From Candidatus Wolframiiraptor gerlachensis (GTDB lineage: Archaea > Thermoproteota > Nitrososphaeria_A > Caldarchaeales > Wolframiiraptoraceae): 64,000 nucleotides of DNA. The notes beneath the pieces are model-generated. The model saw nothing but the letters and a program-made list of their open reading frames with translations, searched no databases and was not told where the DNA came from. The stretch covers positions 55,079 to 119,078 of the forward strand of contig JAJPCT020000018.1 of the NCBI GenBank assembly GCA_021323375.2. The letters run 5' to 3'. A program made the translations under genes and the position numbers. Shown here piece by piece: positions 3,943-20,252 of this stretch (its first letter is position 1; each line of letters begins with the position of its first letter).

Positions 3943-6255
3943 CTAATCCGCTCCCAAGTATCCGGCGAAATAAACCTGTCCTACAGCTGCTCCACCATCC
4001 CCAGGCGGGATCATCCTATTTACGTGAATCCTGAACCCTGAGGCTCTTTCTATGGCTGAGAGGATTACATGGTTGACAGCGGCACCTCCTGAGACGTATA
4101 TAGCCTTGACTCCAAGCTCGCGGGCCTTCTCAGCGGCGACGGCCCCAAGACAACTCCCCAAGATATACTGCGCCGTGTAAGCTATATCATGTCTAGAGTT
4201 GTTGTCGAGGCTCTCCACTATGGCCCTCATGATCTCGCCAGTCATTATTGTGATCGCATCGCCCTTCTTGGAGACGAAGTCATCCGATGGATTACTGATT
4301 ATCAGCCTCCCGCCATAAGACGCCTCCTCAAGCATTATCGCCGGCTCGCCCTCATATGTCCTCTCGAGGCAGAGTGTTAGGAGGGCTGAGACGCTATCAA
4401 GAAATCTTCCAGTACTTGATGTCATAGGCCCTCTTCCCCGCCTTATTTGGGCTAGGACCGCCTCAAGCTCTCTAGACCCATGCTTGAACCCTCTCAGGAG
4501 GCCGCGCCTCCGGATGAAGGACCCGACCTCATCAAGATCCATGAACTTGGATAGTATTGAGGCGAGCATTCTGACGGGCCTATAGGCTGCTAGGTCGCCG
4601 CCCGGCATGAGCGAGTAGTCTAAGAATCCGGCGCGCTCGAATACTCCATCAGCCCATGCTAGGATCTCGCCTCCCCAGATCGCTCCATCGAGCCCATAGC
4701 CGGCTCCATCAATCATTATTCCCACGGCGGGCTCATCCAGGTCATGGCCTACCTCAGCCATAACCGATGCGAAGTGGGCGATGTGATGCTGAACAAGCTT
4801 AAGCTCGAGCCCCTTACCGGATGCGTATTTCTCCGCAGCCCTCCTTGAATAATAAGCTGGATGGAGATCCGCCGCGACGACTGGCCTTCTCTCAATTAAG
4901 CCATAGCATTCTGAGAGGAATTCGAGGTTGCCGACATGCTCCTCGAGCACCCTCGGATTATCCATGTCGCCCGAGTAGGGTGCCAAGATTATCTTATCAT
5001 CAAACCCTATTGCGCCATTAGTCTCGAGATCGCCCCCAAAGGCTATCACGGGCCTCTTAAGGGGATGCTTGAGCTTCATGATCCTCGGGGCATATCCCCT
5101 CCCATATCTCAGGATCACCGGACCGCCATGAGTCGGCCTAACAACCGAGTCATCAACCCTATGAACTATTTTCCTATTATGCGTCAGGATATAGTCTACT
5201 ATGCTCGTGAGCTCTTTTAGCCTCGAGTCATCGCTTATCATGGGGTCTCCATGCACGTTCCCGCTCGTCATTACTAGGAACTTGTCCCTTGTCTCCATAA
5301 GTAGAAGGTAGTGGAGGGGCGTATATGCGAGCATGAGCCCGAGGCTTCGAAGGGATGGGGCCACATAGTCGGAGACCGGGCAGTCCTCCCTCCTCAGCAG
5401 GATTATTATCGGCTTGATGAACCCCGTGAACAGGTCGATTAGGTCCTCGGGGATCTCGACAAGCTTCTCCGCGACCTCTAGGTTGAGCGCCATTATTGCG
5501 AAGGGCTTTCTAGGCCTCCTCTTCCTCCTCCTAAGCTCCAAGACAACCTCATCATCGCTCGCGAGGCATGCTATATGATAGCCGCCAATCCCCTTTACCG
5601 CGACAATCATCCCCTCGTCAATCAGCCTCGCAGCCTGCTTCACGGGATCATCGGCTTCAACTCTCTCAAAACTCCTATCTAGAAGGGATATTCTGGGGCC
5701 ACATCTAGGGCAGCTTATCCCTTGAGCATGATACCTCCTCTCATTCCAGAGATCATTATACTCGCTCAAGCACTCATCACATAACGGGAAATCCCTCATC
5801 GCCGTATTCTCCCTATCATAGGGCGGCTTGTAGATCATTGAATACCTGGGCCCGCACCAGGCGCAGCTATTAAACGGGTACCTATACCATCTGCTCGCGG
5901 GATTCACCACCTCTCCGAGGCAGTGCTCGCAGGCGGCAAGATCCTGAGGAATCTCGGATGCTATGATCCTCTCAATGCCGCTCTCAAGTATGATGAAGTC
6001 TTGGAGGCTGGAGGGCTTCACCTCTTCAACCTTTACAATCTCGAGCTTGGCTGGTGGGGGACGTCTCTCCATGAGTAGCCTGAGAAACTCGCCTACACGA
6101 CCCTCCTCCTCCGACTCGACAAATATCTCAACCTCCCCGCCGCCGAGGTTCCTCACATAGCCTCTCACGCCGGTGATCTTGGCTATCCTCCTGACGAATG
6201 GCCTGAAGCCGACACCCTGAACCATTCCAGTGACATATATTCTCAGAGCCTTCAT
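3943..6255 (-). CDS. hypF: [NiFe] hydrogenase maturation carbamoyltransferase HypF
   Basis: 770 aa. N-terminal acylphosphatase domain (VQGVGFRPFV), two CxxC-x18-CxxC zinc fingers, a YrdC-like domain and a Kae1-like C-terminal domain. Confidence 0.95.
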   Translation of the reverse strand: MKALRIYVTGMVQGVGFRPFVRRIAKITGVRGYVRNLGGGEVEIFVESEEEGRVGEFLRLLMERRPPPAKLEIVKVEEVKPSSLQDFIILESGIERIIASEIPQDLAACEHCLGEVVNPASRWYRYPFNSCAWCGPRYSMIYKPPYDRENTAMRDFPLCDECLSEYNDLWNERRYHAQGISCPRCGPRISLLDRSFERVEADDPVKQAARLIDEGMIVAVKGIGGYHIACLASDDEVVLELRRRKRRPRKPFAIMALNLEVAEKLVEIPEDLIDLFTGFIKPIIILLRREDCPVSDYVAPSLRSLGLMLAYTPLHYLLLMETRDKFLVMTSGNVHGDPMISDDSRLKELTSIVDYILTHNRKIVHRVDDSVVRPTHGGPVILRYGRGYAPRIMKLKHPLKRPVIAFGGDLETNGAIGFDDKIILAPYSGDMDNPRVLEEHVGNLEFLSECYGLIERRPVVAADLHPAYYSRRAAEKYASGKGLELKLVQHHIAHFASVMAEVGHDLDEPAVGIMIDGAGYGLDGAIWGGEILAWADGVFERAGFLDYSLMPGGDLAAYRPVRMLASILSKFMDLDEVGSFIRRRGLLRGFKHGSRELEAVLAQIRRGRGPMTSSTGRFLDSVSALLTLCLERTYEGEPAIMLEEASYGGRLIISNPSDDFVSKKGDAITIMTGEIMRAIVESLDNNSRHDIAYTAQYILGSCLGAVAAEKARELGVKAIYVSGGAAVNHVILSAIERASGFRIHVNRMIPPGDGGAAVGQVYFAGYLGAD

Positions 6256-6308
6256 GGAGGCGCCAGAAAGATGAAGGGGTTCGGAGAATAAAAACTAGAT
6301 CGCGCCAC

Positions 6309-7607
6309 TTACTCCCTGACTATCCTCAGCTTGATGGCGTGAACAGAGCATGAGATACATGGATCATAGTTTCTTATCGTAGTCTCTACTATGTGTTGCG
6401 CCTTTTCCGGGGGCCCACTCAAGATAAGATCCCCGACCTTGAATATGTCCTCCTCCATCGCGGCATAGTTCTGGGTTGTTGGCGGGACTATGTTCGCGTA
6501 GAGTATCCTACCCCTCTCATCTATCCTATAGCGGTGGTATAGCATCCCCCTCGGGGCCTCGACTATCGCAGCCGCCTCACCAGCCCTGACAACCGCCTCA
6601 ATATATGGAGCATGAGGTTCTGAATATTCCTCGATGAGCCTCCCTATCTCGATTATCGAGTGGAGGTTCTCGGCAGCCCTTGCCACGATGCTCTGATAAG
6701 TATTCTTGAGGGGGGCTTTGTATCCAGCCTTTTCTAGGATATCTTTAACCTCCGGCGCTAGGAGGTCGTAGTTTAGGTTGAACCTTGCGATGGGCCCGGT
6801 GATATATGACCTGCCATTCCTCAACCTGTAATGCAGGCCTGTGGAATACTTCTTCTGCTCAACAATGATGTTATCCTCGAAGGAGTCTTCCGGGAATTCC
6901 CAGCCCAAGTTGTTAGCAACCACGCCCTCGAGTATCGGGTACTCCTTCTTCCCCTTGAGGGACATAATGACCATGTCATACTCGATGTCCGGCAGATCTA
7001 GGTTTAGGATGAACTCGAGGAGCTTCTCGCCCTTCTTCCTAATCTCATCATAGTCGCGGGCCAGAGGTTCGAGCTCCTCTCTTCTTATGATCCTGTATAG
7101 ACCTCCAACCCTGAAGCCTATCGGGTGGATTGCGCGGCCCCCAATTATCTCTATTGCCCTATTACCCCAGCTCCTCACGGCGATGGCGTCCCTGACAAAG
7201 TCCGGGTAATCCCTCGCCATCTCGAGAGCGGAATGATATCCTAGGAAGTCCGGCGCATGGAGGAATGCGAAGTGCAGAACATGGCTCTCGATCCACTCGC
7301 CGTAGAAGGCTATCTTTCTAAGGATCTTTATCTCCTCTGGGATATCTATTCCGAGGATCTTCTCCATGGCCCTGCAGGCCGCAAAGATATAGGCGAGAGG
7401 ACATATGCCGCAGATCCTCGCTGTTATATCAGGCGCCTCAAGATAAGGTCTTCCGCGGAGAAATGCCTCAAAGAACCTCGGAGGCTCGAATATGTTGACC
7501 TCGACATAGTCTAACTTGCCATTCTTCACTCTTACCCAGACTCCTCCCTCACCCTCGACCCTCGCCAGCTGGCTGACCTTTATCTCGAAACTCTTACTCT
7601 CGCTCAT
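6309..7607 (-). CDS. hydA: NiFe hydrogenase large (alpha) subunit, cytoplasmic sulfhydrogenase type
   Basis: 432 aa. N-terminal RICGICPLAY and C-terminal DPCISCSVH Ni-binding motifs, with a 9-aa C-terminal extension for proteolytic maturation. It is the last gene of a B-G-D-A order operon. Confidence 0.9.
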   Translation of the reverse strand: MSESKSFEIKVSQLARVEGEGGVWVRVKNGKLDYVEVNIFEPPRFFEAFLRGRPYLEAPDITARICGICPLAYIFAACRAMEKILGIDIPEEIKILRKIAFYGEWIESHVLHFAFLHAPDFLGYHSALEMARDYPDFVRDAIAVRSWGNRAIEIIGGRAIHPIGFRVGGLYRIIRREELEPLARDYDEIRKKGEKLLEFILNLDLPDIEYDMVIMSLKGKKEYPILEGVVANNLGWEFPEDSFEDNIIVEQKKYSTGLHYRLRNGRSYITGPIARFNLNYDLLAPEVKDILEKAGYKAPLKNTYQSIVARAAENLHSIIEIGRLIEEYSEPHAPYIEAVVRAGEAAAIVEAPRGMLYHRYRIDERGRILYANIVPPTTQNYAAMEEDIFKVGDLILSGPPEKAQHIVETTIRNYDPCISCSVHAIKLRIVRE

Positions 7608-8379
7608 ACCTCTCCAGGAACCTCCTAATAGGATCAGACCAACCTGTAAAGCCTCTCAACCTAAGAATAACCTCCTCCTTTGGAAGGCCTATCTCCTCAA
7701 GCCTCCTAGCAAGCGCGTCGGGCTTCGGATCTATCATGGGGCCAAAGCATCCATAACATCCGCGGCCATAACTTGGGCAGAGGGCGCCGCATCCTTCAAC
7801 CATTATCGGTCCAAGGCATGGAATCCCCCGGGAAACCATCACGCAGACATTCCCCCCTCTCTTACACTCTTGGCACAAGCTCTCAAGCCTATGATAAGGC
7901 CTCCTACCAGTCAGCACCTGCTTCAAGACGCTGAAGAGCTGAAGCTCATTCACGGGGCATCCACTAACCTGATAATCCACCCTTATGTGGTCGGATACTG
8001 GCGTGGACTTCTCGAGGCTATTAATCCACTCCGGCTTCGGGTAAACCTGCTTGACAACATCCTGATAATTCATCCAGTTTCTCAACGACTGGATGCCGCC
8101 ATAGACAGCGCAAGTGCCTATCGCAATCACGATCCTCGAATTTTTCCTAATCTCCTTGACCAGCTCAACCTCATGCGGCGTTGAGACTGATCCCTCGATT
8201 AACGCGACGTCATATGGCCCCGGATCGATTCTGCTACTGGCCTCGAGGAAATACGCTATCTCGACCTTCTCAATTAGCGAGAGTAGGTTTTCTCCCAGAT
8301 CTATCAGCTTATCTTGGCACCCACTACATGACGAGAACTTGAAAACCGCTAACTTTGCTTTCTTATTATTCCCGCTCAT
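7594..8379 (-). CDS. hydD: NiFe hydrogenase small (delta) subunit
   Basis: 261 aa. Proximal-cluster Cys (FSSCSGC, GTCA, GCP) plus a C-terminal 8-Cys block CQEC-x6-C-x8-CLGP-x6-C-x3-C-x6-CYGC for two more 4Fe-4S clusters. Confidence 0.9.
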   Translation of the reverse strand: MSGNNKKAKLAVFKFSSCSGCQDKLIDLGENLLSLIEKVEIAYFLEASSRIDPGPYDVALIEGSVSTPHEVELVKEIRKNSRIVIAIGTCAVYGGIQSLRNWMNYQDVVKQVYPKPEWINSLEKSTPVSDHIRVDYQVSGCPVNELQLFSVLKQVLTGRRPYHRLESLCQECKRGGNVCVMVSRGIPCLGPIMVEGCGALCPSYGRGCYGCFGPMIDPKPDALARRLEEIGLPKEEVILRLRGFTGWSDPIRRFLERYERE

Positions 8380-9206
8380 ATCTCATCCACCCAGAAATAC
8401 TTCTTAATTAGCCAGTATGGGAATACGGGGCCATGTCTGCAGACGAAGTAGGGGCCCACTTGGCAGTGGCCGCAAAGCCCGATCCCGCACTTCATCCTCC
8501 TCTCTAGGGAGAAGTAGATCTGATTCTCCTTAAACCCGATCTGCTCAAGAGCCTTAACGGTGAACCTCATCATTATCTCGGGGCCGCAGACGAGGGCTAT
8601 AGTCCTCTCGACATCTATCCTCGCCATCGGTATAAGCTCTGTAACAACGCCGACATGATACCTCCAAGTCTCATCAGGGTGATCGACGGTAAGGAGGAAC
8701 TCCGTATTCGGTATCTCCCTATACCGGTCGAACTCATAGCGGTAGAGTAGGAGGCTGGGAGTTCTCGCTCCATAAAGTATCGTTAGCTTCCCATACTTCC
8801 CCCTATTCCTTTCAACCTCTAGGATGACTCCCCGGAGTGGCGCTAGCCCAATACCGCCAGCCACGATGAGCACATCCTTTCCAGCGAGCTTCTCGATTGG
8901 CCAGCCCTTACCATAGGGCCCCCTTATGCCAACCAAGTCGCCCTCACGCATCTTAAACAGGTAATCGGTCAATGCTCCAACAGATCTTACAGTCTGAACT
9001 AGGATCCCATCCTCCAACCCGCATATTGAGACGGGGGCCTCACCCACGCCTGGAACGTATACCTCGGTGAATTGCCCCGGCTTAGGCGCCTCAACGAGGC
9101 CCCCCTGTACTCTGAAGTAGAATGTCTTGGTATCTGGGGTCTCGGGGACTATCTTGACGATCTCGGCCCTAACCGGCACCATCGGAGTCCTGACTACCTC
9201 CTGCAC
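8376..9206 (-). CDS. hydG: Sulfhydrogenase gamma subunit (FAD/NAD(P)-binding oxidoreductase with 2Fe-2S)
   Basis: 276 aa. Ferredoxin-NADP reductase-like fold (LIVAGGIGLAPL) and a C-terminal CGIGLCGHCQVG cluster motif. It overlaps both neighbours. Confidence 0.85.
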   Translation of the reverse strand: MQEVVRTPMVPVRAEIVKIVPETPDTKTFYFRVQGGLVEAPKPGQFTEVYVPGVGEAPVSICGLEDGILVQTVRSVGALTDYLFKMREGDLVGIRGPYGKGWPIEKLAGKDVLIVAGGIGLAPLRGVILEVERNRGKYGKLTILYGARTPSLLLYRYEFDRYREIPNTEFLLTVDHPDETWRYHVGVVTELIPMARIDVERTIALVCGPEIMMRFTVKALEQIGFKENQIYFSLERRMKCGIGLCGHCQVGPYFVCRHGPVFPYWLIKKYFWVDEI

Positions 9207-10309
9207 CTCGTCTCCACCTCCTTCACCACATCTCTCACAACTTGCCTAAGATCTATTCCTGCGGGACACCAGGTTATGCACCTGCCGCATCCCACACATC
9301 CAAATGTCCCGAACTGCCTGATCCAATACACGAACTTGTGGAGAACCCAGTGCCTATACCTAGCGTAGAGGCTTTTCCTGAAGTGCCCCCCAGCGACCTG
9401 AGCATAGCTATAGCTATGGCATCCATCCCAGATCCTAATCCTCTTCGCGGATCCATCAAGCTCTGGCTCATCAATAACATCAAAGCAGAAGCATGTAGGG
9501 CATACCATATTACAATTAGCACAGCCGAAACATCTCTCAGCAATCTTCCTATAAACCTCCGAGTCTAATCCCATCTCGAGGGTCTCAGGAAGATTTTCCA
9601 GAGTGAACTCCGCTCGAGCCTTCTTAGACGCATCCAGCATGAGGTTTCTGAGGAAGTCAACCTGTTCATCCTCGGCAGGCCTGAGACTGAGCTCGCTGAG
9701 TATATCCACCCCGAGATCGCTCCCCGGCTGGAAGATTACAACGCCGCTGCCAACCCTAGTATAGGCCACATCGAATCCCTTGAAAGCAAACGGGCCCGTG
9801 CCCATGGTCGCGCAGAAGCATGTATCTCCAGGCTCCACGCAGTTCTCGACGATGAGAAGAAGGTTCTCCCTAACCTTCCGATAATACTCGTCTCCCAGCT
9901 CGCCCTGAACACCATCCATGACATTTATCGCAGCAAGATCACAAGGCTTTATACCGAAAAAGGCCGTCTTGTAGAACTCGAACCTCGGATATTCCACGCT
10001 CAGATCAGGCCTAATGATAAATAGGAGTAGCTCTGGGGGGTATAGGAACCTCTTTGGCGAGTCCGGGCCATGCCTGAACCTGCCGCCATTATTGACAACG
10101 CGATAATATCCAGGAGCCTGCTTATCCCCATAGCCATATGGGATCTCATTGAAATCATTTAATTGCTCAAGCCTTATGACGGAATTCACGAGCTTGGGCC
10201 CTATGACCCTATAACCTCTAGAAACCGCCACATTGAACAGCGACTTAAGGTCATCTTCCACACCGGAGTAGACCGACCCCCGGAACAACACTTGATCTGC
10301 GAAGATCAT
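9194..10309 (-). CDS. hydB: Sulfhydrogenase beta subunit (4Fe-4S dicluster protein)
   Basis: 371 aa. Motifs CFGCANCNMVCPTCFC and CVGCGRCITWCPAGI. It is the first gene of the four-gene operon. Confidence 0.85.
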   Translation of the reverse strand: MIFADQVLFRGSVYSGVEDDLKSLFNVAVSRGYRVIGPKLVNSVIRLEQLNDFNEIPYGYGDKQAPGYYRVVNNGGRFRHGPDSPKRFLYPPELLLFIIRPDLSVEYPRFEFYKTAFFGIKPCDLAAINVMDGVQGELGDEYYRKVRENLLLIVENCVEPGDTCFCATMGTGPFAFKGFDVAYTRVGSGVVIFQPGSDLGVDILSELSLRPAEDEQVDFLRNLMLDASKKARAEFTLENLPETLEMGLDSEVYRKIAERCFGCANCNMVCPTCFCFDVIDEPELDGSAKRIRIWDGCHSYSYAQVAGGHFRKSLYARYRHWVLHKFVYWIRQFGTFGCVGCGRCITWCPAGIDLRQVVRDVVKEVETRCRR

Positions 10310-10591
10310 AAAATCGTTATAATTTTAACCTTTCTAAAGAAAGCATTAGCCTCATTATGGAGAACCAGCTCTAGTTAAGTTTTGAGGTTGGAGGGGCTTT
10401 CGCGCGTTTTACCTGTTGAAGTTCTCCCGAATTCAGGTTGCTGTCAATTTTCCAAGTTTATTCAAGCTAACGCTTCCCACATTGACGAGGCTTGGATTCA
10501 GCTTAACACTCATGTCTATTATGATCTCTGCAATCTCGGCTGAAAGCTCGGCCTGCCTCTTCATACTCCATATAAATTGCGTGAAGTTGGG

Positions 10592-11527
10592 TCAAAGCAC
10601 GCTCACATCGCATTTAACCGATCTATACCTTAACCTATCGATAATTTCATTTTCGCCGAGTTCTATATCCTCGAGATATCTTCTTATCGCCTCGTTGGCC
10701 AGCCTAATATCCTTTGAAAATATGGCTCTTATGGCCTTTTCACGAATATTCCGGCAACGTTCATAATATTCCGTAAGTTTTTGAAGTGTCTCCTTATCAA
10801 GTTCCACCTCGCAGGTCAGTATTTTTAGAACGCTCTTGGCGCCGAGCTTGGATAAATCGGCCATTCTTTCAAGGCAGTAGCCCATTATCGCGAGGAAAGA
10901 TATCTCCAATGGTTGTGTTATCCCTAGATTCTCGGCAAAATTCCTCTTCTTATGAGCGGTTGAGAGGGCTCTGGAGAATAGATAGTAGAGCTTATTTACC
11001 TCCTCATCCCTCAATATCACCATCTTAGCTAGTTCGCGATTCCCCTCAATAAACGCCCTGAAATACTCCTCCTGCATGGATGAGACCAAGTTACAGATCC
11101 TCTCTAGAATTGAATAGATTGAGGACTTAAGGACATCTACTATACATTGTAGCACGACGTGCTGCTCAGTCTCATCCATTACAGAGACCCCTGTCAGCAA
11201 TTTTAACGCCTCCCGGATCTCCTTGATATGCCTATAGCTTAAGCGAGTTTTTGAGATAATCTCGATCATGTCGACACCGGCAATATAGCTCGCAACAATC
11301 AGCCTGTTTAGAAGCCCGGGCTGATCGCATAGATCCGCATTTATCCTGCAGGCTTCAAGGGTATGGTCTGCGTCCGATTTAGCGGGCCACAATCTTAACG
11401 AACCATCATTATATTCTTCGATAACTATGGCGTCCCCCTGCTTAAGACCATGCTCCCTAACCCACCAGTAGGGTAAGGAGATTGTTAAAGTGCCCTTACC
11501 AACACGCTGTATCTTACGCTGCTCCAT
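10592..11527 (-). CDS. AbrB/SpoVT-domain plus PhoU-domain regulator (archaeal phosphate uptake regulator family)
   Basis: 311 aa. N-terminal swapped-hairpin AbrB motif (RKIQRVGKGTLTISLPYWWVREHGLKQGD) followed by two PhoU-like helical repeats. Confidence 0.75.
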   Translation of the reverse strand: MEQRKIQRVGKGTLTISLPYWWVREHGLKQGDAIVIEEYNDGSLRLWPAKSDADHTLEACRINADLCDQPGLLNRLIVASYIAGVDMIEIISKTRLSYRHIKEIREALKLLTGVSVMDETEQHVVLQCIVDVLKSSIYSILERICNLVSSMQEEYFRAFIEGNRELAKMVILRDEEVNKLYYLFSRALSTAHKKRNFAENLGITQPLEISFLAIMGYCLERMADLSKLGAKSVLKILTCEVELDKETLQKLTEYYERCRNIREKAIRAIFSKDIRLANEAIRRYLEDIELGENEIIDRLRYRSVKCDVSVL

Positions 11528-11658
11528 GAAATCCCCCAGTAAAATAGCATAATTTTCGCTAGATAAGATTTATTGTCCGAGGCCTAGGAGAAATTTAGGG
11601 TAAATACCTTATATACTGGAATATTTTTTCTATTTCTCTAGGTATATATCAAGCTGGT

Positions 11659-12156
11659 TTGGTAAATGCTTGGGGTAAAATGAGTGGGAAGATATGTTCC
11701 GGCAATCTGATCGAATCTCTCCAAAGAATTCAAGAAAAGCAAGGATTCTTGCCGAGAGACTCATTAATAAAGCTTTCCCGGGATACGCGGAGCCCTCTAA
11801 GCAGGATATTCGGTGTAGCGACATTTTACCACCAGTTCAGGCTGGAACCGCCTGGAAAAGTAACGATTGCTGTTTGCATGGGGACTGCATGCCATCTTAG
11901 GGGGAATGCTGAGAACTATGAATTTCTAAGGAGATTCTTGGGTATACGGCCCGACAGATCGACGAGCGATGATGGCCTATTCTCCTTGGAGAAGGCTAGA
12001 TGCTTTGGCTGCTGTAGCCTAGCCCCAGTGGTGAAGATCGGTGATATGCTCGTCGGCAAGGCCACGCCTAGGGAGCTTCAAAAGGCGATCTCCCGCGTTA
12101 GGGAGTCGATTCTGAGGGAGGAGGCTGCTCGCGGGGCTGGGGGTGGTAAGACATGA
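11659..12156 (+). CDS. NuoE/HoxE/HydC-like thioredoxin-like [2Fe-2S] subunit
   Basis: 165 aa. Contains ATFYHQF, CMGTACHLRG and CFGCCSLAPVV, the NuoE 24-kDa family Cys pattern. Confidence 0.85.
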   Translation: MVNAWGKMSGKICSGNLIESLQRIQEKQGFLPRDSLIKLSRDTRSPLSRIFGVATFYHQFRLEPPGKVTIAVCMGTACHLRGNAENYEFLRRFLGIRPDRSTSDDGLFSLEKARCFGCCSLAPVVKIGDMLVGKATPRELQKAISRVRESILREEAARGAGGGKT

Positions 12157-14126
12157 TGAGGCAGGAGTACTGGACATTAATGGATCCATGTTGCGATTAT
12201 TGTCTTCATTCTCGGGACAATCCTTGCGCGAAGTATGTTGTCTGCAGAATGCGCGGGCCATTCTGTCACAGGAGTGTGGAGTGTAGGGAGAAGAGGCAGC
12301 GGAGGATCAGGGAGGTGCTTTACGGCTCGCAGGGCGTTAGAATTAATATCGGTGCATCGAGCTGCGGCTTGGCTGCTGGCGCCGAACGGGTCCTCGAGGC
12401 CGTGAAAGATGGTCTCAGATCAATGGGCGTGGAGGCGGAGGTTTCCGCGGTGGGCTGTCTGGGATTATGCTTCATGGAGCCCTTCATCGAGATTCAGAGC
12501 GAGGATGGTCCATCTCCGATCTATGGCTATGTATCGCCCGAGAATGTTGGCGATATTCTTGCCAGGTATTTTGAGGAGGGGAGCGTGGATGGCGCATTCG
12601 CGATCAGGAAGCGCACGGGCAGATTCAAGGACGAGGATAAGGTCCCCCTCTTGGATGAGCTTGATGTCTGGAGGAAGCAGGTGAAATGGGTTTCTAGAAA
12701 CTGTGGTGTGATTAACCCGGAGTCGATCGAGGAGTATATTGTTACAGGCGGTTATGAGGGGCTTTCAAGAGCGCTGACGATGAGGCCTGAGGAGGTTATC
12801 GAGGAGATTAGGCTGGCGGGGCTTAGGGGTAGAGGTGGAGCCGGGTTCCCAACATGGCTCAAGTGGAAGATATGCCGCGAGCAGCCATCAGAGGAGAAGT
12901 ATGTCATCTGTAATGCTGATGAGGGTGATCCGGGGGCTTTCATGAATAGGCTCTTGGCGGAGTCTGATCCACACAGGGTGCTGGAGGGCATCATAATAGC
13001 TGGATACGCGATAGGCGCTTCTCAGGGCGTGATTTTTGTCAGGGCGGAGAAGCCCCTGATGGCTGCCAGGCTTGAGAAGGCCGTGGAGGATGCTCGCCGA
13101 TGGGGGCTTCTGGGCGAGAATATCCTCGGATCGGGATTCAGCTTCGATGTGAGGGTGATGAGGAGTGCTGGGGCATTTGTATGCGGGGAGGAGACGGCTA
13201 TGATAGCGGCTATCGAGGGGAGGCGTGCGATGCCGCGGCAGCGGCCACCATACCCAGCCTCTAAGGGCCTTTGGGATAAGCCAACGGTGGTCAATAACGT
13301 CGAGACGCTGGCGCATGTCGCGACGATAATGGCGCATGGATGGCGGGAGTTCGCGAAATATGGGACTGAGCGGAGCAAGGGGACGAAGATGTTCTGCGTA
13401 ACCGGCGGCGTTAAGAGGACAGGCGCATTCGAGGTTCCAATAGGCACCACGATCAGGACCCTCGTGTATGATATAGCTGGGGGGCCGCATGAAGGCAGAA
13501 GGATAAAGGCGGTTCAGATAGGAGGACCCTCAGGCGGGTGCCTCCCAGAGAGGCTATTCGACCTACCTATCGATTATGAGAGCCTTCAGGAGGCTGGCGC
13601 GATAATGGGCTCCGGGGGCCTAGTGGTCATAGATGACACTAACTGCATGGTTGATGTGGCGAGATACTTCACTTCATTCACCTTAGCCGAGTCTTGTGGT
13701 AAGTGTATACCATGCAGGGTTGGCACGAAGGCGTTGTATGACCGCTTATCCGCGATAGTTGAGGGTATGAGTAGCCAAGAGGACCTACAATTGCTCGAGG
13801 AGATTGGGATTATGATGAAGGAGGCGGCTCTATGCGCCTTAGGCGGGACCGCGCCAAATCCGATCCTATCATCACTCAGGTACTTTAGAGATGAATATGA
13901 GGCCCATATATTGGAGAAGAGATGCCCGGCGAAAGTTTGTAGAAAGCTTGTCTCATATGCTATAAACCGGGAGCTTTGCGTCAAATGTGGATTATGTGCC
14001 AAGTCATGTCCTGTGGGCGCGATAGCAAAAACAGCTGATGGTTACTTCATGATAGATGAGTCTAGGTGCATCAGATGTGGCACGTGCGTTATCACGTGTC
14101 CGAGAGGTGCTGTTGAGAAGAGGTGA
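12153..14126 (+). CDS. NuoF/HoxF/HydB-like NAD(P)H- and FMN-binding subunit with extra Fe-S domains
   Basis: 657 aa. NuoF core (GRGGAGFPTWLKW, CGKCIPCRVG), a C-terminal 2x[4Fe-4S] domain (CVKCGLCAKSCP, CIRCGTCVITCP), an N-terminal thioredoxin-like domain and a Cys-rich leader. Confidence 0.85.
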   Translation: MMRQEYWTLMDPCCDYCLHSRDNPCAKYVVCRMRGPFCHRSVECREKRQRRIREVLYGSQGVRINIGASSCGLAAGAERVLEAVKDGLRSMGVEAEVSAVGCLGLCFMEPFIEIQSEDGPSPIYGYVSPENVGDILARYFEEGSVDGAFAIRKRTGRFKDEDKVPLLDELDVWRKQVKWVSRNCGVINPESIEEYIVTGGYEGLSRALTMRPEEVIEEIRLAGLRGRGGAGFPTWLKWKICREQPSEEKYVICNADEGDPGAFMNRLLAESDPHRVLEGIIIAGYAIGASQGVIFVRAEKPLMAARLEKAVEDARRWGLLGENILGSGFSFDVRVMRSAGAFVCGEETAMIAAIEGRRAMPRQRPPYPASKGLWDKPTVVNNVETLAHVATIMAHGWREFAKYGTERSKGTKMFCVTGGVKRTGAFEVPIGTTIRTLVYDIAGGPHEGRRIKAVQIGGPSGGCLPERLFDLPIDYESLQEAGAIMGSGGLVVIDDTNCMVDVARYFTSFTLAESCGKCIPCRVGTKALYDRLSAIVEGMSSQEDLQLLEEIGIMMKEAALCALGGTAPNPILSSLRYFRDEYEAHILEKRCPAKVCRKLVSYAINRELCVKCGLCAKSCPVGAIAKTADGYFMIDESRCIRCGTCVITCPRGAVEKR

Positions 14127-14791
14127 TGGTGATGAAGGTTAGGATAAATGGTTTGGAGGTGGAGGCAAGGGAGGGCGAGAGGATACTCGATGTCGCCAAT
14201 CGCCTGGGCATTAGGATACCAACCCTCTGCTATCTCAAAAATGTGTATGAGGGCGCCTCCTGCAGAATCTGCGTCGTCGAGCTAGGTAATGGAAAGTTGA
14301 TACCAGCCTGCGCCTATGAGGTGTCCGATGGCCTCACTATCAGCACCGATACTCCGAGGATTAGGGAGAGCAGGAGGGTGACGCTGGAGCTGCTGCTCTC
14401 TGCTCATAGGATTACGTGCCAGAATTGTCCCAAGAAGGGTGAGTGCACCCTAGTGGAGCTATGCTCCGAGTACGGTGTTGAGGGGATACCAGTATGCGCC
14501 GAGTGCCCTCTCCACGGAGAGGACTGCTTCATCGCGAGGAGCGAGATCTGCCTAGGCCCGATCACGGCTAGCGGATGCAAAGCTGAGTGTATTCGCGATG
14601 GGAGGACTTGCGAGGGCTGCAGGGGTCCAGTCACGAGGAGAGACGTGATAGAGTGGGCTAGAGGGATTTACATCGAGCATGGCATATCGTTGGAGGCGGT
14701 TCTTGAGAAGCTCAAGACATATTGTGCTTCATCACGCGAATTCGACCTAATTCGCGAGTATCTTGTGGTGAAGGAGGTGGTTGAGGGATGA
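14123..14791 (+). CDS. Fusion protein: 2Fe-2S ferredoxin + His-ligated 4Fe-4S module (HoxU/NuoG/HydA N-terminal type) + C-terminal half of a NiFe small subunit
   Basis: 222 aa. N-terminus has CYL...CRIC...C, then HRITCQNCPKKGEC. The C-terminal 8-Cys block CAEC-x6-C-x7-CLGP-x6-C-x3-C-x6-CEGC is nearly superimposable on the C-terminus of the in-window paralog at 7594..8379. Confidence 0.8.
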   Translation: MMVMKVRINGLEVEAREGERILDVANRLGIRIPTLCYLKNVYEGASCRICVVELGNGKLIPACAYEVSDGLTISTDTPRIRESRRVTLELLLSAHRITCQNCPKKGECTLVELCSEYGVEGIPVCAECPLHGEDCFIARSEICLGPITASGCKAECIRDGRTCEGCRGPVTRRDVIEWARGIYIEHGISLEAVLEKLKTYCASSREFDLIREYLVVKEVVEG

Positions 14792-16077
14792 TGAGTGTTC
14801 CTGGTATTGATAGGATAGTGGGCCACGCGACCCTGGACATAGATATGGAGAGAGGGGCGCTGGATGCGCGTTTCAAGGTCTTGAATGATCCACGCTTCAT
14901 AGAGGCCATAGTGCTAGGGAAGAAGTATTATGAGGTTCCATCAATTGTCTCTAGGATATGTGGGCCATGTAGCATAAGCCATACGATAACCGCTACGATG
15001 GCCATAGAGAAGGCTCTTGGAGTGAGCGTCCCGGAGCCGGTGAGAATTCTCAGGAGGATAGCTGTGCTTGGGGAAGTGGTTGAGAACCATCTCCTACATC
15101 TCACGCTGGTGTGCTTGCCGGAATACTTTGGATATGCCGATCTTATTGAGGTCGCCAAGTATAAGCCAGAGCTCCTCAAGAGCATACTGCTCATCAGGTC
15201 ACAGCTTTCCAAGATCATGGAAATGATCTCTGGGAGGCTCGTCCACCCGAACACGCTGATGATAGGTGGGTTCTCCAAGACCCTTGGGAAGACGAAGCTC
15301 GAGGAGGCGAGGAACATGTTAAGGGAGATCAGGGGCAAGATCATCGATATCGCGGAAATATTTCTCGAGATCGAGTTCCCCGAGTTCGAGGTGATAATGG
15401 AAGCATGCGCATCCCTGAGGGACGACTACCTCTACATCGGGGATGAGATAATCACCTCGGATGAACGGAGGGTTAGAGCGGAGGATTATAGGAAGGTGTT
15501 CATAGAGGATGTGCAGCCATATACGACTTCGAAGAGGGTGACGCTTGAGGGGCTGCCCGTATACGTTGGGGCTAGGGCGAGGGTGAACTTGAAGGCCGAC
15601 ATGCTCTCAGAGAGGGCTAAATCCTATCTCAAGGCGAGGAGATTCCCGCTGAGAAACCCGTTCGATAATCTAAGGGCGCAGGCCATAGAACTGATTCACT
15701 GCATGGATGCCATGGAAATGTTAATTGAGGAGGTTCTCAATATCCTCGAAGCCAAGTCAATTCATGTAGGATCAGGGATCATGATTAGGGAGGGTGCTGG
15801 TGTTGGGGTGTCTGAGGCCCCCCGCGGCATACTAATCCACCATTATGAGGTTAATTGCTGGGGCAACGTGGTCTATGCCAACGTGATAACGCCAACGACA
15901 ATAAATTGTAGGCACGTGGAGGTCGCGGCCCTGGAGCTTATCAGGCACTATTTCTACGAGGATGCACCGGCCACTGAGATAGAACGCTACCTGAGAAAGC
16001 TCGTGCAGGCATATGACCCATGTCTCGGCTGCGCAACCCACTCGGTCAAGATAAACATTAGGGGGTTGAAAGCATGA
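14788..16077 (+). CDS. NiFe hydrogenase large subunit (second hydrogenase)
   Basis: 429 aa. Motifs RICGPCSISH and C-terminal DPCLGCATH, followed by a 12-aa extension. Confidence 0.9.
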   Translation: MMSVPGIDRIVGHATLDIDMERGALDARFKVLNDPRFIEAIVLGKKYYEVPSIVSRICGPCSISHTITATMAIEKALGVSVPEPVRILRRIAVLGEVVENHLLHLTLVCLPEYFGYADLIEVAKYKPELLKSILLIRSQLSKIMEMISGRLVHPNTLMIGGFSKTLGKTKLEEARNMLREIRGKIIDIAEIFLEIEFPEFEVIMEACASLRDDYLYIGDEIITSDERRVRAEDYRKVFIEDVQPYTTSKRVTLEGLPVYVGARARVNLKADMLSERAKSYLKARRFPLRNPFDNLRAQAIELIHCMDAMEMLIEEVLNILEAKSIHVGSGIMIREGAGVGVSEAPRGILIHHYEVNCWGNVVYANVITPTTINCRHVEVAALELIRHYFYEDAPATEIERYLRKLVQAYDPCLGCATHSVKINIRGLKA

Positions 16078-17462
16078 GGATCGGCATATACTCATTCGGC
16101 GGATGCGAGGGCTGCAGATACTGGCTAATAGACTCGATGCTGAGAGTATGCGAGGAACTTGGCGCCGAGATAGTCTATGAGCCCCTCATCGGGCTTTCCA
16201 AGGAGAACCCCGAATACGATTTGGTAATCATCGAGGGGGCTGTCTGCACCGACGAGGACTCCGAGAAGCTCCAGAGACTGAGATCTCGAGCGAAGTATCT
16301 CGTCGCCCTAGGCTCCTGTGCCCTGCTCAGCGGTGTGCCAGGCCTTAAGAGGTTCACGGATCCACGCGCGGCCGAGATGGTCTACTTTGGCAAGCCGTTG
16401 CCGAAGAAGCCGGTTGACGTGAAGCCGATAACTGCCTATATTCATGTAGATTATTGGATCAGGGGATGCCCGCCGGATCGAGAGAACTTCGAGAGGCTCT
16501 TTAGGGCCATAATCTCCGGCATCGCCTCCGGGAGGCCTTTCAAGCTCCATGAGAGGAGACTGGAATTCTGCAGGGAGGAATTCACGAGCATCGAGGGAAG
16601 CGTGCTAAGGCTCGACGGCGACAAGTGCATGGTCTGCGGTAGATGTGTCGGCGCCTGCGAGAGGATGGGAGTCTACGCGATAGACTATGCGTACAGGAGC
16701 ATAAGCACAGTCGTGACAACGCCCTTCTCAATACCCTTCGATGAGAGCACATGTGTGCTATGCGGCCAGTGTACGCTCGTCTGCCCGGTCGGCGCGATCC
16801 GCGAGAGGAGTGACCTAGAAAAGGTTCAAAGAATTCTATCAAGGCCCACGGCGCTAAGAGCTTACATAGAGCCTGAGAGCCTAGCAGCTATGTCCAGCTA
16901 CTTCAACCGCGAGGTCGAGGTAATCATTGGAGCGCTTATCGCCAGAGGCTTTGAGAGCGTTGCAATATATGTGCCCGAGTATCACGCCGATGTCGAGAGA
17001 CCGCTGATCCCCGCGAGCGAGGCCGAAAGGAGATTTATCAACATATTCTATCCACAGCTAGCTGAACTATTGTCGGAGCCGCCGGCTCCGCCGGGAGGAT
17101 CATCAGTCCTGATAACGCCGTGCTTAGCTAAGAAGGCGCAGGCCCGTGAGGGATTAGTATTAACAACTCGCGAGGCGATCAAGCTAATCTCCAACATCGA
17201 CTTGGACGAGGTCGAGGGGACCCTCCCCATAATGCCCTCCAGAAAAAGCATCACCTTCAGGGAGGTTCATGGGCCGGATAACGTGATTAGGTTCCTAGAG
17301 GAATATACGAGGGGGGTGCGCGTCAAGGAGCCGATGATACTTAAGATGTGCCCAGGCGGATGCCTTGGAGGCGGAGGACAACCATACTATAACGAGGACC
17401 TCTATCGGAGGATGAATGAGGCGCTTGCGAGGATATCTTCCACGCTCCTAGTCATTGATTGA
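16074..17462 (+). CDS. Fusion protein: N-terminal half of a NiFe small subunit + 2x[4Fe-4S] ferredoxin + degenerate [FeFe]-hydrogenase H-cluster-like domain
   Basis: 462 aa. Residues 1-150 align with the N-terminus of 7594..8379 (FGGCEGC, GSCA, GCP). Next come CMVCGRCVGACE and CVLCGQCTLVCPVGAI. The C-terminus has FeFe-hydrogenase L2-like ITPCLAKKAQA and L3-like KMCPGGCLGGGGQP, but no L1 TSCCP. Confidence 0.8.
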   Translation: MRIGIYSFGGCEGCRYWLIDSMLRVCEELGAEIVYEPLIGLSKENPEYDLVIIEGAVCTDEDSEKLQRLRSRAKYLVALGSCALLSGVPGLKRFTDPRAAEMVYFGKPLPKKPVDVKPITAYIHVDYWIRGCPPDRENFERLFRAIISGIASGRPFKLHERRLEFCREEFTSIEGSVLRLDGDKCMVCGRCVGACERMGVYAIDYAYRSISTVVTTPFSIPFDESTCVLCGQCTLVCPVGAIRERSDLEKVQRILSRPTALRAYIEPESLAAMSSYFNREVEVIIGALIARGFESVAIYVPEYHADVERPLIPASEAERRFINIFYPQLAELLSEPPAPPGGSSVLITPCLAKKAQAREGLVLTTREAIKLISNIDLDEVEGTLPIMPSRKSITFREVHGPDNVIRFLEEYTRGVRVKEPMILKMCPGGCLGGGGQPYYNEDLYRRMNEALARISSTLLVID

Positions 17463-17930
17463 ATCCAGCTCGAGCAGGCGGGATATACTCTCCAATATTT
17501 TCGGGATCGCTTTCTCCACCTCCTCACTCAATCCTATTCCCGGACTTATCTCCTTGGCTCCCACGCCGACTAAGAGGATCCTGCGGGGCATTTTATCCCT
17601 GAAGAGCTCGTATCCCAGCCTGATAGCTGAGACCACGTCAATATCATGCAGCGATTGAATTTCACCGACATGCTCCTGAGACAGCCCACCCAGATCCACC
17701 ACGACCACCTCGCCCGGAGATAATCCGGATTTGACGACATCGACTATTATCAAGCCGTCAAATCCTGTGATCTCGTCCAGGAGCGTGAAGACGTCTAAGC
17801 CTGTTTCAAAGATCTTTACCTCGGCTGGTAGATCGCGCTTGAGAAGGATCTCGCCCACGACTAGGCCGAGAGCATCATCTTTCATGAGCCTGCTGCCAAC
17901 ACATAGTATCAGGATTTTTCGGGCCCTCAT
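17448..17930 (-). CDS. Hydrogenase maturation endopeptidase (HycI/HyaD family)
   Basis: 160 aa. N-terminal ILILCVGSRLMKDDALG matches the GNxxxxDDGxG-type motif. It lies beside hypE/hypD and converges on the hydrogenase operon. Confidence 0.8.
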   Translation of the reverse strand: MRARKILILCVGSRLMKDDALGLVVGEILLKRDLPAEVKIFETGLDVFTLLDEITGFDGLIIVDVVKSGLSPGEVVVVDLGGLSQEHVGEIQSLHDIDVVSAIRLGYELFRDKMPRRILLVGVGAKEISPGIGLSEEVEKAIPKILESISRLLELDSIND

Positions 17931-17983
17931 CCCGGGGTGGCCAAGACCTATTGAGCGATATAGCTATTCTAGAATCTTGGATG

Positions 17984-19051
17984 CTAGCAGATCCTGGGAA
18001 CCGGGTCTCCAAGGGGCATCGGCAGATATCTTAGCCCACCTATCTCGGTCTCAACGACGACCCCCTCAAGCTCATCGGAGAACCATCCTATTATCTCGGC
18101 CTCGCGGCCTAGTGGATGAGAGCGGAGGGCTTCCAAGACCTCCTCCGCGAACCTCTCGGAGACCGCTAGGACAACTCTTCCCTCGCATGCCAGTTCAAGC
18201 GGATCTATCCCCAGTATCTCGCAGCCGATTCTCACCTCATCGCGGACCGGTATAAGGGCTTCTTTCACGAGTATGCCGAGGCCCGTGGCCTCGCTCCACT
18301 CATTTAGAAGAGCCGCCAACCCCCCTCTAGTTGGATCCTTCGCCGCCACAACCCCTCCCACCTCGAGAGCCCTCTTCATGAGATGATTCAATGGCGCGGT
18401 ATCCGATTTTAGGCCCGGCGCCTCGAAGCCAAGCTCACCCCTAGCAGCTATAATTGTCATCGCATGGTCGCCGATGGGCCCCGAGACTATCAGCCTATCT
18501 CCCGGCCTCACATTCCGGGGATCAAGCCATCTCGATCTCAGGGATCTCCCATCAGATGCCACCCTCTCCAAGTTCTTATCCAAGTATGGGCTCCTCCCAC
18601 CGATGCCAGCCGTGTTGATTATCATCTCATCGAGCTTGCCCCTTTCCACGACCTTTGTGTCGCCTGTCACGATCTCGACGCCAGCCTCCTCAGCCGTCTC
18701 CTCCATGCTCGATAGAATCCTATCCAGCTTCTCTATCTCGAAGCCCTCCTCGATCACTAAAGCGCATGAGATTGCTATGGGCTCGCTTCCCACCACTGAG
18801 AGATCGTTCACGGTCCCGGAGACGCTGAGCCTCCCTATATCGCCTCCAGGGAAGAAGAGGGGCTTAACGGTATAGGAGTCTGTCGTGAACGCTATCCCAT
18901 CGACAACAGCCGAGTCGGCGAGGAGGGGGAGAGGGATCTCAATAACCCTCCTCTGCTTAAACCTTGGAAGAATATGCTCCCTGATAAGCTTATGCATGTA
19001 GAGGCCGCCAGCACCATGTGCTATGCTTATCCTATTATCCACGCCCACCAA
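17984..19051 (-). CDS. hypE: Hydrogenase expression/formation protein HypE
   Basis: 355 aa. AIR-synthase-like fold and the hallmark C-terminal PRIC. Confidence 0.93.
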   Translation of the reverse strand: MVGVDNRISIAHGAGGLYMHKLIREHILPRFKQRRVIEIPLPLLADSAVVDGIAFTTDSYTVKPLFFPGGDIGRLSVSGTVNDLSVVGSEPIAISCALVIEEGFEIEKLDRILSSMEETAEEAGVEIVTGDTKVVERGKLDEMIINTAGIGGRSPYLDKNLERVASDGRSLRSRWLDPRNVRPGDRLIVSGPIGDHAMTIIAARGELGFEAPGLKSDTAPLNHLMKRALEVGGVVAAKDPTRGGLAALLNEWSEATGLGILVKEALIPVRDEVRIGCEILGIDPLELACEGRVVLAVSERFAEEVLEALRSHPLGREAEIIGWFSDELEGVVVETEIGGLRYLPMPLGDPVPRIC

Positions 19052-19076
19052 AAATCACCCCACACTCACGATCTCC

Positions 19077-20252
19077 TCAGGGGCCTCGCCTCACGATTAA
19101 TCCACAGACCCCGCTCATACATCTGATATCCTTAACCAATATCCTGTTCTGAGCCCATATCCTGCATGTTCCCTCAATCCCAACCATCGCCGGGCCCACC
19201 GGAGTCGATGGGGTACACTTCTTCATGTATAGGGGGCAGTCCGGTGGATCAATAATCCCCTTTATTATCTCGGCGCATCTAGCCTCCGACGGGAAGCAGT
19301 CTCCTCCTCCATGCTCTAGGCCATAAGTCCTTCTAGCATCAACTTGGGAGAACATTTCCTTAAAGTTCATGGCACTTTCAGGTATTATCGCGACACCTCT
19401 CCAATAGCCATCCTCGAAATCGAAGACCTCTTGGAGAGCCTTCTGCGCCTTCAGGTTCCCCTCCCACGTCACAGATCTCACATACTCGTTCTCCATCCTC
19501 GGGGCGCGATCCCTTAGCTGCTTGAGAACCATGTAGATCGCCATCAAGACGTCTATGGGCTCGAAGCCCGCGAAGACCATCGGCTTGCCACACTTATCGA
19601 AATACGGCTTATACGCCTTCATACCGCTCACGGTCGAGGCGTGGCCCGGATTTATGAAAGCATCTATCTCGAGATCCTCGGATTCCGCTAGAAGCCCGAC
19701 AGCCGGCGGGACATACCTGTGGGCGGAGAGGACCTTAAGGTTTCTCGGAAGCCCCTTCAGGACGAAATAGGCCACGGTTGGCGCCGTGGTCTCAAAGCCT
19801 GCTCCAAGGAATACATACTCCTTATCCGGGTTACTGCTAGCGATCTTGACAGCATCCATGAAGCTATACACAACCCCAACCCTCCCACCCTCAGCAGCAC
19901 AATCCTCCAGCGAGATCATCCTAGAACCCTTAGCCCTAGACACATCACCATAGGTAAGCACATGGATCCCATCAAGCGCGAGCCCGACGGCCACATCTAT
20001 ATCAGATGCAGGGGTTATGCAGACTGGGCAGCCGGGTCCAGCCCTAACCTCAACATTATCCGGCAGAAGAGCCCTAATACCCCAATGAGTTATGGTCCAC
20101 TCATGAGTCCCACACACATGCATTATCCTAACCCTCGGAAGATCCCTAGCAACCTCCCAGATCTTCTCAACTAGCCTCCTAGCAAGAGCTGGATCCCTAT
20201 ATCTCGAAAGAATCACCCTCACACGATCCAAGGACCCCATACCATCTATCAC
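19077..20252 (-). CDS. hypD: Hydrogenase expression/formation protein HypD
   Basis: 391 aa. Contains the GPGCPVC motif, CGTHE and C-terminal Cys motifs. Confidence 0.93.
   Translation of the reverse strand: MIDGMGSLDRVRVILSRYRDPALARRLVEKIWEVARDLPRVRIMHVCGTHEWTITHWGIRALLPDNVEVRAGPGCPVCITPASDIDVAVGLALDGIHVLTYGDVSRAKGSRMISLEDCAAEGGRVGVVYSFMDAVKIASSNPDKEYVFLGAGFETTAPTVAYFVLKGLPRNLKVLSAHRYVPPAVGLLAESEDLEIDAFINPGHASTVSGMKAYKPYFDKCGKPMVFAGFEPIDVLMAIYMVLKQLRDRAPRMENEYVRSVTWEGNLKAQKALQEVFDFEDGYWRGVAIIPESAMNFKEMFSQVDARRTYGLEHGGGDCFPSEARCAEIIKGIIDPPDCPLYMKKCTPSTPVGPAMVGIEGTCRIWAQNRILVKDIRCMSGVCGLIVRRGP

Follow-up and report, generated by a model that had tools for sequence, protein, structure and literature searches.

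The stretch of DNA analyzed here (hereafter the window) comprises 64,000 nucleotides (nt) of the genome of Candidatus Wolframiiraptor gerlachensis, a member of the Caldarchaeales (assembly GCA_021323375.2, contig JAJPCT020000018.1, positions 55,079 to 119,078). Five open reading frames (ORFs) on its plus strand, at positions 11659-17462, quite likely encode the core of a soluble, five-subunit archaeal hybrid hydrogenase. This enzyme would be built on a flavin core of the Bfu/HydABC type and contain two chimeric proteins, ORF3 and ORF5, derived from two parent proteins that were each cut once and exchanged their halves. Every neighboring pair of the five genes shares 4 nt by stop/start overlap, and their organization is that of a translationally coupled operon.

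The first gene (11659..12156) codes for HydC (BfuC), a NuoE/HoxE-like subunit with a thioredoxin-fold [2Fe-2S] domain (Pfam 2Fe-2S_thioredx, E 2.6e-37; NCBIfam HoxE/NuoE). Translation probably begins at the ATG at 11680 and not at the TTG at 11659, and the stop of the gene overlaps the start of hydB by 4 nt. HydB (BfuB; 12153..14126) is an FMN/NAD(H)-binding, NuoF-like subunit (Complex1_51K, NADH_4Fe-4S, Fer4) and has the layout of the bifurcating (Bfu) type: an N-terminal CCxxC prefix (NCBIfam NuoF_pre_CCxxC, E 1.2e-17) is followed by a thioredoxin-like domain for a [2Fe-2S] cluster and, at the C-terminus, by a domain for 2x[4Fe-4S]. It aligns over nearly its full length with the solved BfuB proteins 9n5u_B (NfnB; E 1e-209) and 7t2r_B (E 6e-201; residues 71-656 to 16-596), and nearly end-to-end with 9bov_B and 7q4v_B and with HydB of Acetobacterium woodii, Thermotoga maritima, and Thermoanaerobacter kivui. 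The structural hallmarks of Bfu enzymes were found: the FMN/NAD site, the N-terminal [2Fe-2S] cluster, the C-terminal 2x[4Fe-4S] clusters, and the BfuC subunit.

The fourth gene (14788..16077) encodes HyhL, a group 3b-like [NiFe] hydrogenase large subunit (NiFeSe_Hases). Its best NCBIfam profile, ShyA, is matched with E 2.7e-81 but below the equivalog cut-off, and the protein shares 30% identity with the alpha subunit of a sulfhydrogenase that is also encoded in the window. The ligands of the NiFe site are present (C58/C61 in RICGPC; C412/C415 and H418 in DPCLGCATH), and a C-terminal extension of 11 residues is available for protease processing. With the RxCGxC and DPCxxCxxH motifs, a proximal-cluster domain, and a HycI-family protease, the locus has the general features of [NiFe] hydrogenases.

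Two chimeric subunits, ORF3 and ORF5

The protein encoded upstream of HyhL, ORF3 (HydD; 14123-14791), falls into two parts. Residues 1-120 (14123..14482) correspond to the N-terminal part of a HydA/HoxU/NuoG-type protein, with the Pfam domains Fer2_4 at residues 5-77 and NADH-G_4Fe-4S_3 at residues 84-121. Predicted ligands exist for one [2Fe-2S] cluster (C36, C47, C50, C63) and one His-ligated [4Fe-4S] cluster (H95, C99, C102, C108). This part covers positions 2-124 of FeFe_hydrog_A6 and 1-132 of HoxU (NCBIfam), and both T. kivui HydA1 (8a6t_A, 4-122) and NiFe-HydA (7t2r_A, 6-123) align with residues 4-122. Residues 121-222 (14483..14791) represent the C-terminal domain of a group 3b/3c [NiFe] hydrogenase small subunit with its helical tail. 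They are matched by the NCBIfam profiles ShyD (157-238 of 240 at residues 121-201, E 2.5e-13), HydD (164-252 of 261 at residues 122-208, E 4.8e-13), and VhuG, and by the delta subunit of the Pyrococcus furiosus sulfhydrogenase (SHI; 9nez_A, 161-245 at residues 122-204, E 5.5e-13). The unsplit small subunit of the sulfhydrogenase in the window (7594-8379, minus strand) served as a reference; its residues 168-255 and residues 124-214 of ORF3 are 37% identical (BLASTP, E 4e-11). The eight cysteines assigned to a medial and a distal [4Fe-4S] cluster (C125, C128, C135, C143, C152, C156, C163, C166) are invariant or nearly so among 48 homologs, and the ligand tally of 4+4+8 suits four Fe-S clusters. 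The ratio of nonsynonymous to synonymous substitution rates (dN/dS) of this domain is 0.09. These assignments rely on BLASTP and hidden Markov model (HMM) alignments, as MAFFT mis-paired the CQEC-x6-C of the unsplit small subunit with the His-cluster motif CQNC-x5-C of ORF3. Translation of ORF3 probably starts at the ATG at 14132 (219 amino acids, aa) and not at the listed GTG at 14123: homologs begin with MKV... or MVKV... (for example P0001 with MKVRI), and a Shine-Dalgarno-like GAGGTGAT precedes this ATG.

ORF5 (16074-17462), encoded downstream of HyhL, begins with the complementary half of the small subunit. Residues 1-160 (16074..16553) form the N-terminal, flavodoxin-like domain (Pfam Oxidored_q6 at residues 11-144, E 2.2e-20), to which the NCBIfam profiles HydD (6-148), VhuG (6-174), and ShyD (1-155 at residues 1-154) align, as do 9nez_A (4-145 at residues 1-141) and 7t2r_E (8-169). 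Residues 2-167 share 26% identity with residues 9-173 of the unsplit small subunit (BLASTP, E 3e-18). The ligands of the proximal [4Fe-4S] cluster (C11, C14, C82, C132) are invariant or nearly so among 23 homologs. The following segment, residues 161-260 (16554..16853), comprises a flexible linker and a ferredoxin-like domain with the ligands of 2x[4Fe-4S] (C185, C188, C191, C195; C227, C230, C233, C237); the AlphaFold2 model has a low predicted local distance difference test (pLDDT) score at residues 157-169. Profiles matching the ferredoxin-like domain are FeFe_hydrog_A6 (137-223), HoxU (140-211), and TIGR02512 (3-110), the last continuing into the C-terminal, H-domain-like module (residues 261-462; 16854..17462). 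In T. kivui HydA1, residues 131-255 align with ORF5 170-291, and residues 350-390 and 462-517 are matched by ORF5 346-379 and 392-447, respectively.

Taken together, the two proteins tile one small subunit, whose pieces on ORF5 and ORF3 join at its first C-terminal CxxC. In both protein families, the ligands of all clusters are conserved. The match to HydA ends at position 122 on ORF3 and resumes at 131 on ORF5. As both HydA1 and HoxU are matched in two pieces across ORF3 and ORF5, a HydA-like protein was also cut once. According to these alignments, the small subunit (S_N and S_C for its N- and C-terminal halves) and the HydA-like protein (A_N and A_C) have exchanged halves, ORF3 being A_N+S_C and ORF5 being S_N+A_C. 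A preliminary description of the locus, made from the sequence without database searches, had placed the medial/distal-cluster half upstream of the large subunit, behind a 2Fe-2S plus His-4Fe-4S module, and the proximal-cluster half downstream. The ORFs lie at the coordinates given there. The profile, BLASTP, and structure-based matches bear out both placements, and they identify genuine N- and C-terminal small-subunit domains and not an unrelated ferredoxin family. The motif strings given there were correct apart from one spacing (CLGPI-x5-C, which is x4 in both sequences), and the alignment is unaffected. The "other Fe-S modules" to which the halves were said to be fused do exist; they are not an arbitrary assortment but the two halves of one HydA/HoxU-like protein. 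At the break itself, ERRLEFCRE of ORF5 (residues 160-168; window 16554-16580) aligns with HRLESLCQEC of the unsplit subunit. C166 of ORF5, which is found in most homologs but not all, and C125 of ORF3 fall on the same reference cysteine, which indicates a short overlap at the break point.

Two results weigh against a split small subunit. Foldseek searches of the PDB with the ORF3 model gave the N-termini of HydA, CpI, and NuoG as top matches, and the matches listed for the full-length model cover its N-terminal half only; the fold assigned to residues 121-222 is therefore based on profiles and not on a structural match. Furthermore, the FrhG profile TIGR03294 aligns almost completely (positions 3-218 of 228) with residues 2-240 of ORF5 (E 4.7e-19), and 3zfs_B and 9r51_C align over residues 2-238. 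On this basis, ORF5 1-240 might be a complete FrhG-type small subunit followed by a bare H-domain, with the eight-cysteine block of ORF3 being a conduit module recruited from a 3b/3c small subunit. We consider this unlikely. The FrhG score of 69 bits is no better than the scores that ShyD, HydD, and VhuG reach with the N-terminal domain alone (66-75 bits), so the ferredoxin part adds little, whereas residues 170-291 match HydA far better (81 bits), in an alignment that passes from 2x[4Fe-4S] to the H-domain without interruption. An FrhG-type classification was rejected for these reasons. Moreover, the HydA match restarts on ORF5 within ~10 residues of where it stops on ORF3, and the match of ORF3 121-214 to the C-terminal domain of the small subunit extends past the cysteines and takes in the helical tail.

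The reduced H-domain of ORF5

The C-terminal module of ORF5 resembles the H-domain of [FeFe] hydrogenases in a reduced form. Pfam Fe_hyd_lg_C was detected at residues 344-434 with 24.7 bits (gathering cut-off 22.1), and the P2 (TPC350LAKK) and P3 (MC426PGGC430LGGGGQP) motifs are retained. The P1 motif TSCCP is replaced by a P-x-SEAE motif without cysteine (PASEAE in ORF5), in which S315 and E318 are invariant. Both TSCCP cysteines are missing in 21 out of 21 aligned sequences of the ORF5 clade, none of the 14 homologs recovered by a motif scan (the window and 13 loci) contains TSCC, and the only invariant cysteines of the module are C350, C426, and C430. In addition, ~110 H-domain residues are deleted in this clade, among them the SPQQ region and the loop that precedes P3. 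The AlphaFold2 model of ORF5 has a mean pLDDT of 76.9, with the 10-residue blocks between residues 241 and 460 at 83-97 except for one at 77; its H-like part resembles CpI (Foldseek E 1.2e-15). The dN/dS of the module is 0.12. Most likely, the sequence encodes a domain that lacks an H-cluster and holds at most an Fe-S cluster with three cysteine ligands, and which may have been kept for structural reasons or for such a simple cluster. With the TSCCP cysteines lost, the [NiFe] center is probably the sole H2-activating site in this clade.

Alternatively, the complex could be a true two-site hybrid, with an H-cluster or a variant of it in ORF5, where Ser or Glu of the P-x-SEAE motif replaces cysteine, and with a [NiFe] site in HyhL. 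The conservation of P2 and P3 including K353 and GGGQP, the low dN/dS, and the CpI-like model would all fit such a function. Two further points count against the loss of the H-site: the invariant S315 or E318 could take the place of cysteine as fourth ligand and so support a cluster or even an unusual H-site, and one group F protein has produced H2 after artificial maturation (PMC11216029). However, the absence of the TSCCP cysteines from all aligned sequences of the clade and the large deletion are difficult to reconcile with a second catalytic site, the domain of ~200 aa is smaller than an "ultraminimal" 33 kDa enzyme, and the full HydEFG maturase set was found in only 5 of 130 genomes of archaea with [FeFe] hydrogenase genes (Greening et al., PMC11216029). 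A two-site enzyme thus appears improbable, even slightly more so than an FrhG-type small subunit in ORF5.

An exhaustive HMMER search with ORF5 revealed a second tier of related proteins of ~570 aa. This tier aligns with solved [FeFe] hydrogenases over the whole H-domain (in P0196, residues 177-546 with 8a6t_A 135-523, E 1e-38) and keeps TSWCP, P2, and P3. By size and motif the homologs form a series from ~570 aa with TSWCP, through two proteins of intermediate length (487-501 aa) that have PCSEAA or PCCYSA, to ~430-470 aa with PxSEAE. Along this series the Fe_hyd_lg_C score declines from 79 bits (P0196, TSWCP) and 47 bits (P0186, PCSEAA) to the 24.7 bits of ORF5 (PASEAE). We tentatively propose, with slightly less than even confidence, that the clade found in Caldarchaeales, Thermoproteia, and Asgard archaea descends from a two-site hybrid whose H-domain was whittled down to three cysteines and P-x-SEAE, and that it now comprises bifurcating enzymes that use [NiFe] only and in which the reciprocal swap is obligate. 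The series could also be read backwards, as one of scaffolds that preceded the H-cluster, and if true this would bear on the origin of [FeFe] hydrogenases.

The search also recovered a protein of 859 aa (P0197) in which a response-regulator receiver and a histidine-kinase ATPase precede the small-subunit N-terminal domain, 2x[4Fe-4S], and the H-like module. It carries the motifs LSWCKGA and YPCFKKCLTGGGNYP, a motif subtype shared with P0200-P0204, and might be derived from the hybrid fusion as a sensor of redox state or H2.

Distribution, selection, and genomic context

Proteins of the ORF3 type have 214-236 aa, cover 85-99% of the query, and fall into ~50 groups when clustered at 90% identity. 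Their sole annotation, in Thaumarchaeota/Nitrososphaerota, Bathyarchaeia, and Asgardarchaeia, is "2Fe-2S iron-sulfur cluster-binding protein." Among the GTDB species representatives surveyed, 22 loci match ORF3 well past its N-terminal half. One of them is that of Ca. Wolframiiraptor allenii (ORF3 93% identity), and the survey also takes in metagenome-assembled genomes (MAGs) of Desulfurococcales, Sulfolobales, Zestosphaera, Pyrobaculum, Thermoprotei, and Bathyarchaeia. The full order C-B-[A_N+S_C]-L-[S_N+A_C] (C, HydC; B, HydB; L, HyhL) was found in 13 of these 22 species (Ca. Wolframiiraptor, Desulfurococcales, Sulfolobales, Zestosphaera, Pyrobaculum). Six more loci agree with it as far as their contigs reach, which end before the last gene. 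In the remaining 3, all from Bathyarchaeia, the chimeric genes lie side by side and do not enclose a large-subunit gene. These complexes may use a borrowed large subunit or none. The same three loci (L007 5995-8018; L008 1061-3157; L021 322-2335) have a conventional small/large-subunit pair nearby, beside a gene of ~825 aa (in L007 on the opposite strand). Relative to the Ca. W. allenii orthologs, dN/dS is 0.04-0.12 for every module. At least 22 archaeal species have kept the arrangement, on which strong purifying selection acts.

The operons of the ~570-aa tier encode HydC, a short plain NuoF, [S_N+A_C], [A_N+S_C], and HyhL (L082 5225-10731; L084 2427-7830), and their HydD also possesses the small-subunit C-terminal domain (HydD profile 164-255, E 5.7e-17). 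As both chimeras occur in this second tier too, the reciprocal split is common to the whole hybrid family. That the halves flank the large-subunit gene, as the preliminary description had it, applies to the clade of the window alone; relatives have the order fusion-HydD-HyhL or lack HyhL between the chimeric genes, and the flanking position is the gene order of one clade. The same orders, [S_N-A_C]-[A_N-S_C]-L or no L between the chimeric genes, disfavor an origin by Campbell-type insertion, in which a circular hyhS-hyhL element entering hydA would directly give A_N-S_C-L-S_N-A_C. Considering this variety in relatives, gene order is no record of the original event. HydB of the 570-aa tier has 413-431 aa and is of the plain NuoF type. 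It has neither the N-terminal nor the C-terminal cluster domains specific to Bfu, and its coupling may therefore be a different and possibly non-bifurcating one.

In the window, the hybrid operon is part of a hydrogenase island at positions 3943-20252. Upstream, on the minus strand, lie HypF (3943-6255), the complete four-gene operon of a group 3b sulfhydrogenase (6309-10309), and a PhoU-domain protein (10592-11527). Downstream, a [NiFe] large-subunit maturation endopeptidase of the HycI/HyaD family (17448..17930, minus strand; Pfam HycI; TIGR00072 E 1.4e-29) is oriented convergently to ORF5, whose 3' end it overlaps, and is followed by HypE (17984-19051) and HypD (19077-20252), both on the minus strand. 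The endopeptidase gene also occurs in a separate MAG (L001), in which the gene order is identical. An independent metagenome contig spans positions 11600-17950 with three substitutions and neither indels nor joints. Since this contig and the separate MAG agree, the arrangement is not an assembly artifact. Minor contigs from two hot-spring metagenomes (X2, X4) diverge just upstream of position ~11663 and share one 30-nt consensus there, a sign that strains differ in the hydC promoter or 5' region. The notion that both chimeras are relics in decay, or artifacts of assembly or of a frameshift, and that a normal small subunit encoded elsewhere serves HyhL can practically be dismissed: although none of the RNA runs checked contains the locus, a point against a functional enzyme, the ORFs are intact, their ligands are invariant in the 48 and 23 homologs, synteny extends over 22 species, independent contigs have the identical arrangement, the one further small subunit encoded in the window is part of a separate operon, that of the sulfhydrogenase, and the low dN/dS excludes decay.

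Relation to known complexes and proposed electron route

The preliminary description knew of no described hydrogenase with this organization, yet the enzyme class is already in the literature under the name hybrid group F [FeFe]/group 3f [NiFe] complex, which consists of a HydA-HyhS fusion with HydB, HydC, HydD, and HyhL and for which an AlphaFold2 model exists (Greening et al., 2024, Cell; PMC11216029). The fission was not spelled out in that study. HydD was described as a NuoG-like conduit with four clusters, and three [4Fe-4S] clusters of the fusion were credited to "the [NiFe] hydrogenase component." In the Methods, the HydD cofactors were placed by means of 7T2R chain A and 5ODC chain E, the latter being a small subunit (PMC11216029). 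The small-subunit split is thus implicit in print but never stated there. The complex encoded in the window shares with this family the set of five genes, the fusion of an N-terminal small-subunit part with a C-terminal [FeFe]-like part, a HydD of ~220 aa with four clusters, and a group 3 large subunit; HyhL, HydB, HydC, and HydD are encoded contiguously with the fusion. It differs in lacking the full set of H-cluster cysteines, as the ~200-aa H-domain of ORF5 has no TSCCP cysteines while the relatives of ~570 aa keep TSWCP. Furthermore, the family is known from Thermoproteota, Bathyarchaeia, and Asgard archaea, and the host lineage Caldarchaeales is absent from the classes named in PMC11216029. 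By its predicted architecture the complex is a member of the F/3f hybrids with a degenerate H-site. The explicit reciprocal split and the degenerate H-site in a widespread clade refine the picture of an enzyme class known since 2024.

Among other systems, the related bacterial and bifurcating enzyme NiFe-HydABCSL of Acetomicrobium mobile (7T2R/7T30; PMC8880783, PMC9304861) is similar in its BfuB/BfuC core, in a HydA-like cluster chain whose H-site is non-catalytic, and in a [NiFe] module that ends a single electron branch. There, however, HydA is one chain of 692 aa, and HydS (179 aa, group 3d-like) holds the proximal cluster only. The enzyme encoded in the window has a HydA-like chain in two pieces and a 3b-like [NiFe] module, which kept its medial and distal clusters, now moved onto the N-terminal HydA fragment. 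Group 3b sulfhydrogenases (P. furiosus SHI/SHII; 9NEZ, 9E15; the second operon in the window) provide the best profiles for HyhL and for both small-subunit halves. Membership in group 3b was nevertheless rejected, because the matches to ShyA, ShyD, and HydD fall far short of the equivalog cut-offs, beta and gamma (HydB/HydG-type) genes are missing from the hybrid operon, the partners are NuoE/NuoF/HydA-like, and the small subunit is split. Group 3d Hox (HoxEFUYH) was rejected as well, given that HoxU is in two pieces, a medial/distal-cluster domain is present, and the large subunit is nearest to group 3b. In the peripheral arm of complex I, the N-terminus of ORF3 corresponds to NuoG (N1b/N5), that of ORF5 to NuoB (N2), and HyhL to NuoD. 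A connector of two clusters between the His-ligated and the N2-equivalent cluster is common to both systems, and the route recalls N5-N6a-N6b-N2. In contrast to complex I, this connector is the small-subunit C-terminal domain fused to a NuoG-like fragment and not the NuoI ferredoxin, and the predicted enzyme is soluble, has no membrane arm, and contains a NiFe active site.

On assembly, the separated halves of either parent protein would re-associate non-covalently, so that the chimeric chains interlock the [NiFe] module with the diaphorase module. H2 would be oxidized at the NiFe site of HyhL and the electrons passed to the proximal cluster in the N-terminus of ORF5, then to the medial and distal clusters in the C-terminus of ORF3, and on to the His-ligated [4Fe-4S] cluster of the same protein. 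From there they may proceed via the ferredoxin-type clusters in the middle part of ORF5 and the [2Fe-2S] cluster in the N-terminus of ORF3 to the FMN of HydB, where bifurcation or confurcation between NAD(H) and ferredoxin would take place. This route is drawn by analogy with complex I and with 7T2R, where the electron path comprises NiFe, S1, A3, A2, A1, and FMN (PMC9304861; NiFe-HydABCSL cryo-EM, PMC8880783). A weakness of the proposal is that we infer both the re-association of the halves and the route. With the distal-cluster domain fused right behind that of the His-ligated cluster, the [NiFe] module would be fixed in its docking position, and the crossing of the chains would make assembly obligate.

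The reciprocal exchange of halves offers a concrete, testable rationale for how a [NiFe] module is wired and stapled to a flavin core. Furthermore, a large and widespread branch without the TSCCP cysteines tempers the view that all hybrid complexes have two H2 sites, and the relatives of the enzyme provide a natural series for studying the loss (or origin) of the H-domain. For the organism itself, the published metabolic model of Wolframiiraptor relies on the membrane-bound Mbh, the one hydrogenase that it discusses, without mention of a hybrid enzyme (PMC9246946). The findings now place a hybrid-type, probably electron-confurcating hydrogenase in Wolframiiraptor-like Caldarchaeales, and its likely physiological role would be the evolution of H2 from NADH and reduced ferredoxin in a sugar-fermenting, Wolframiiraptor-like archaeon.

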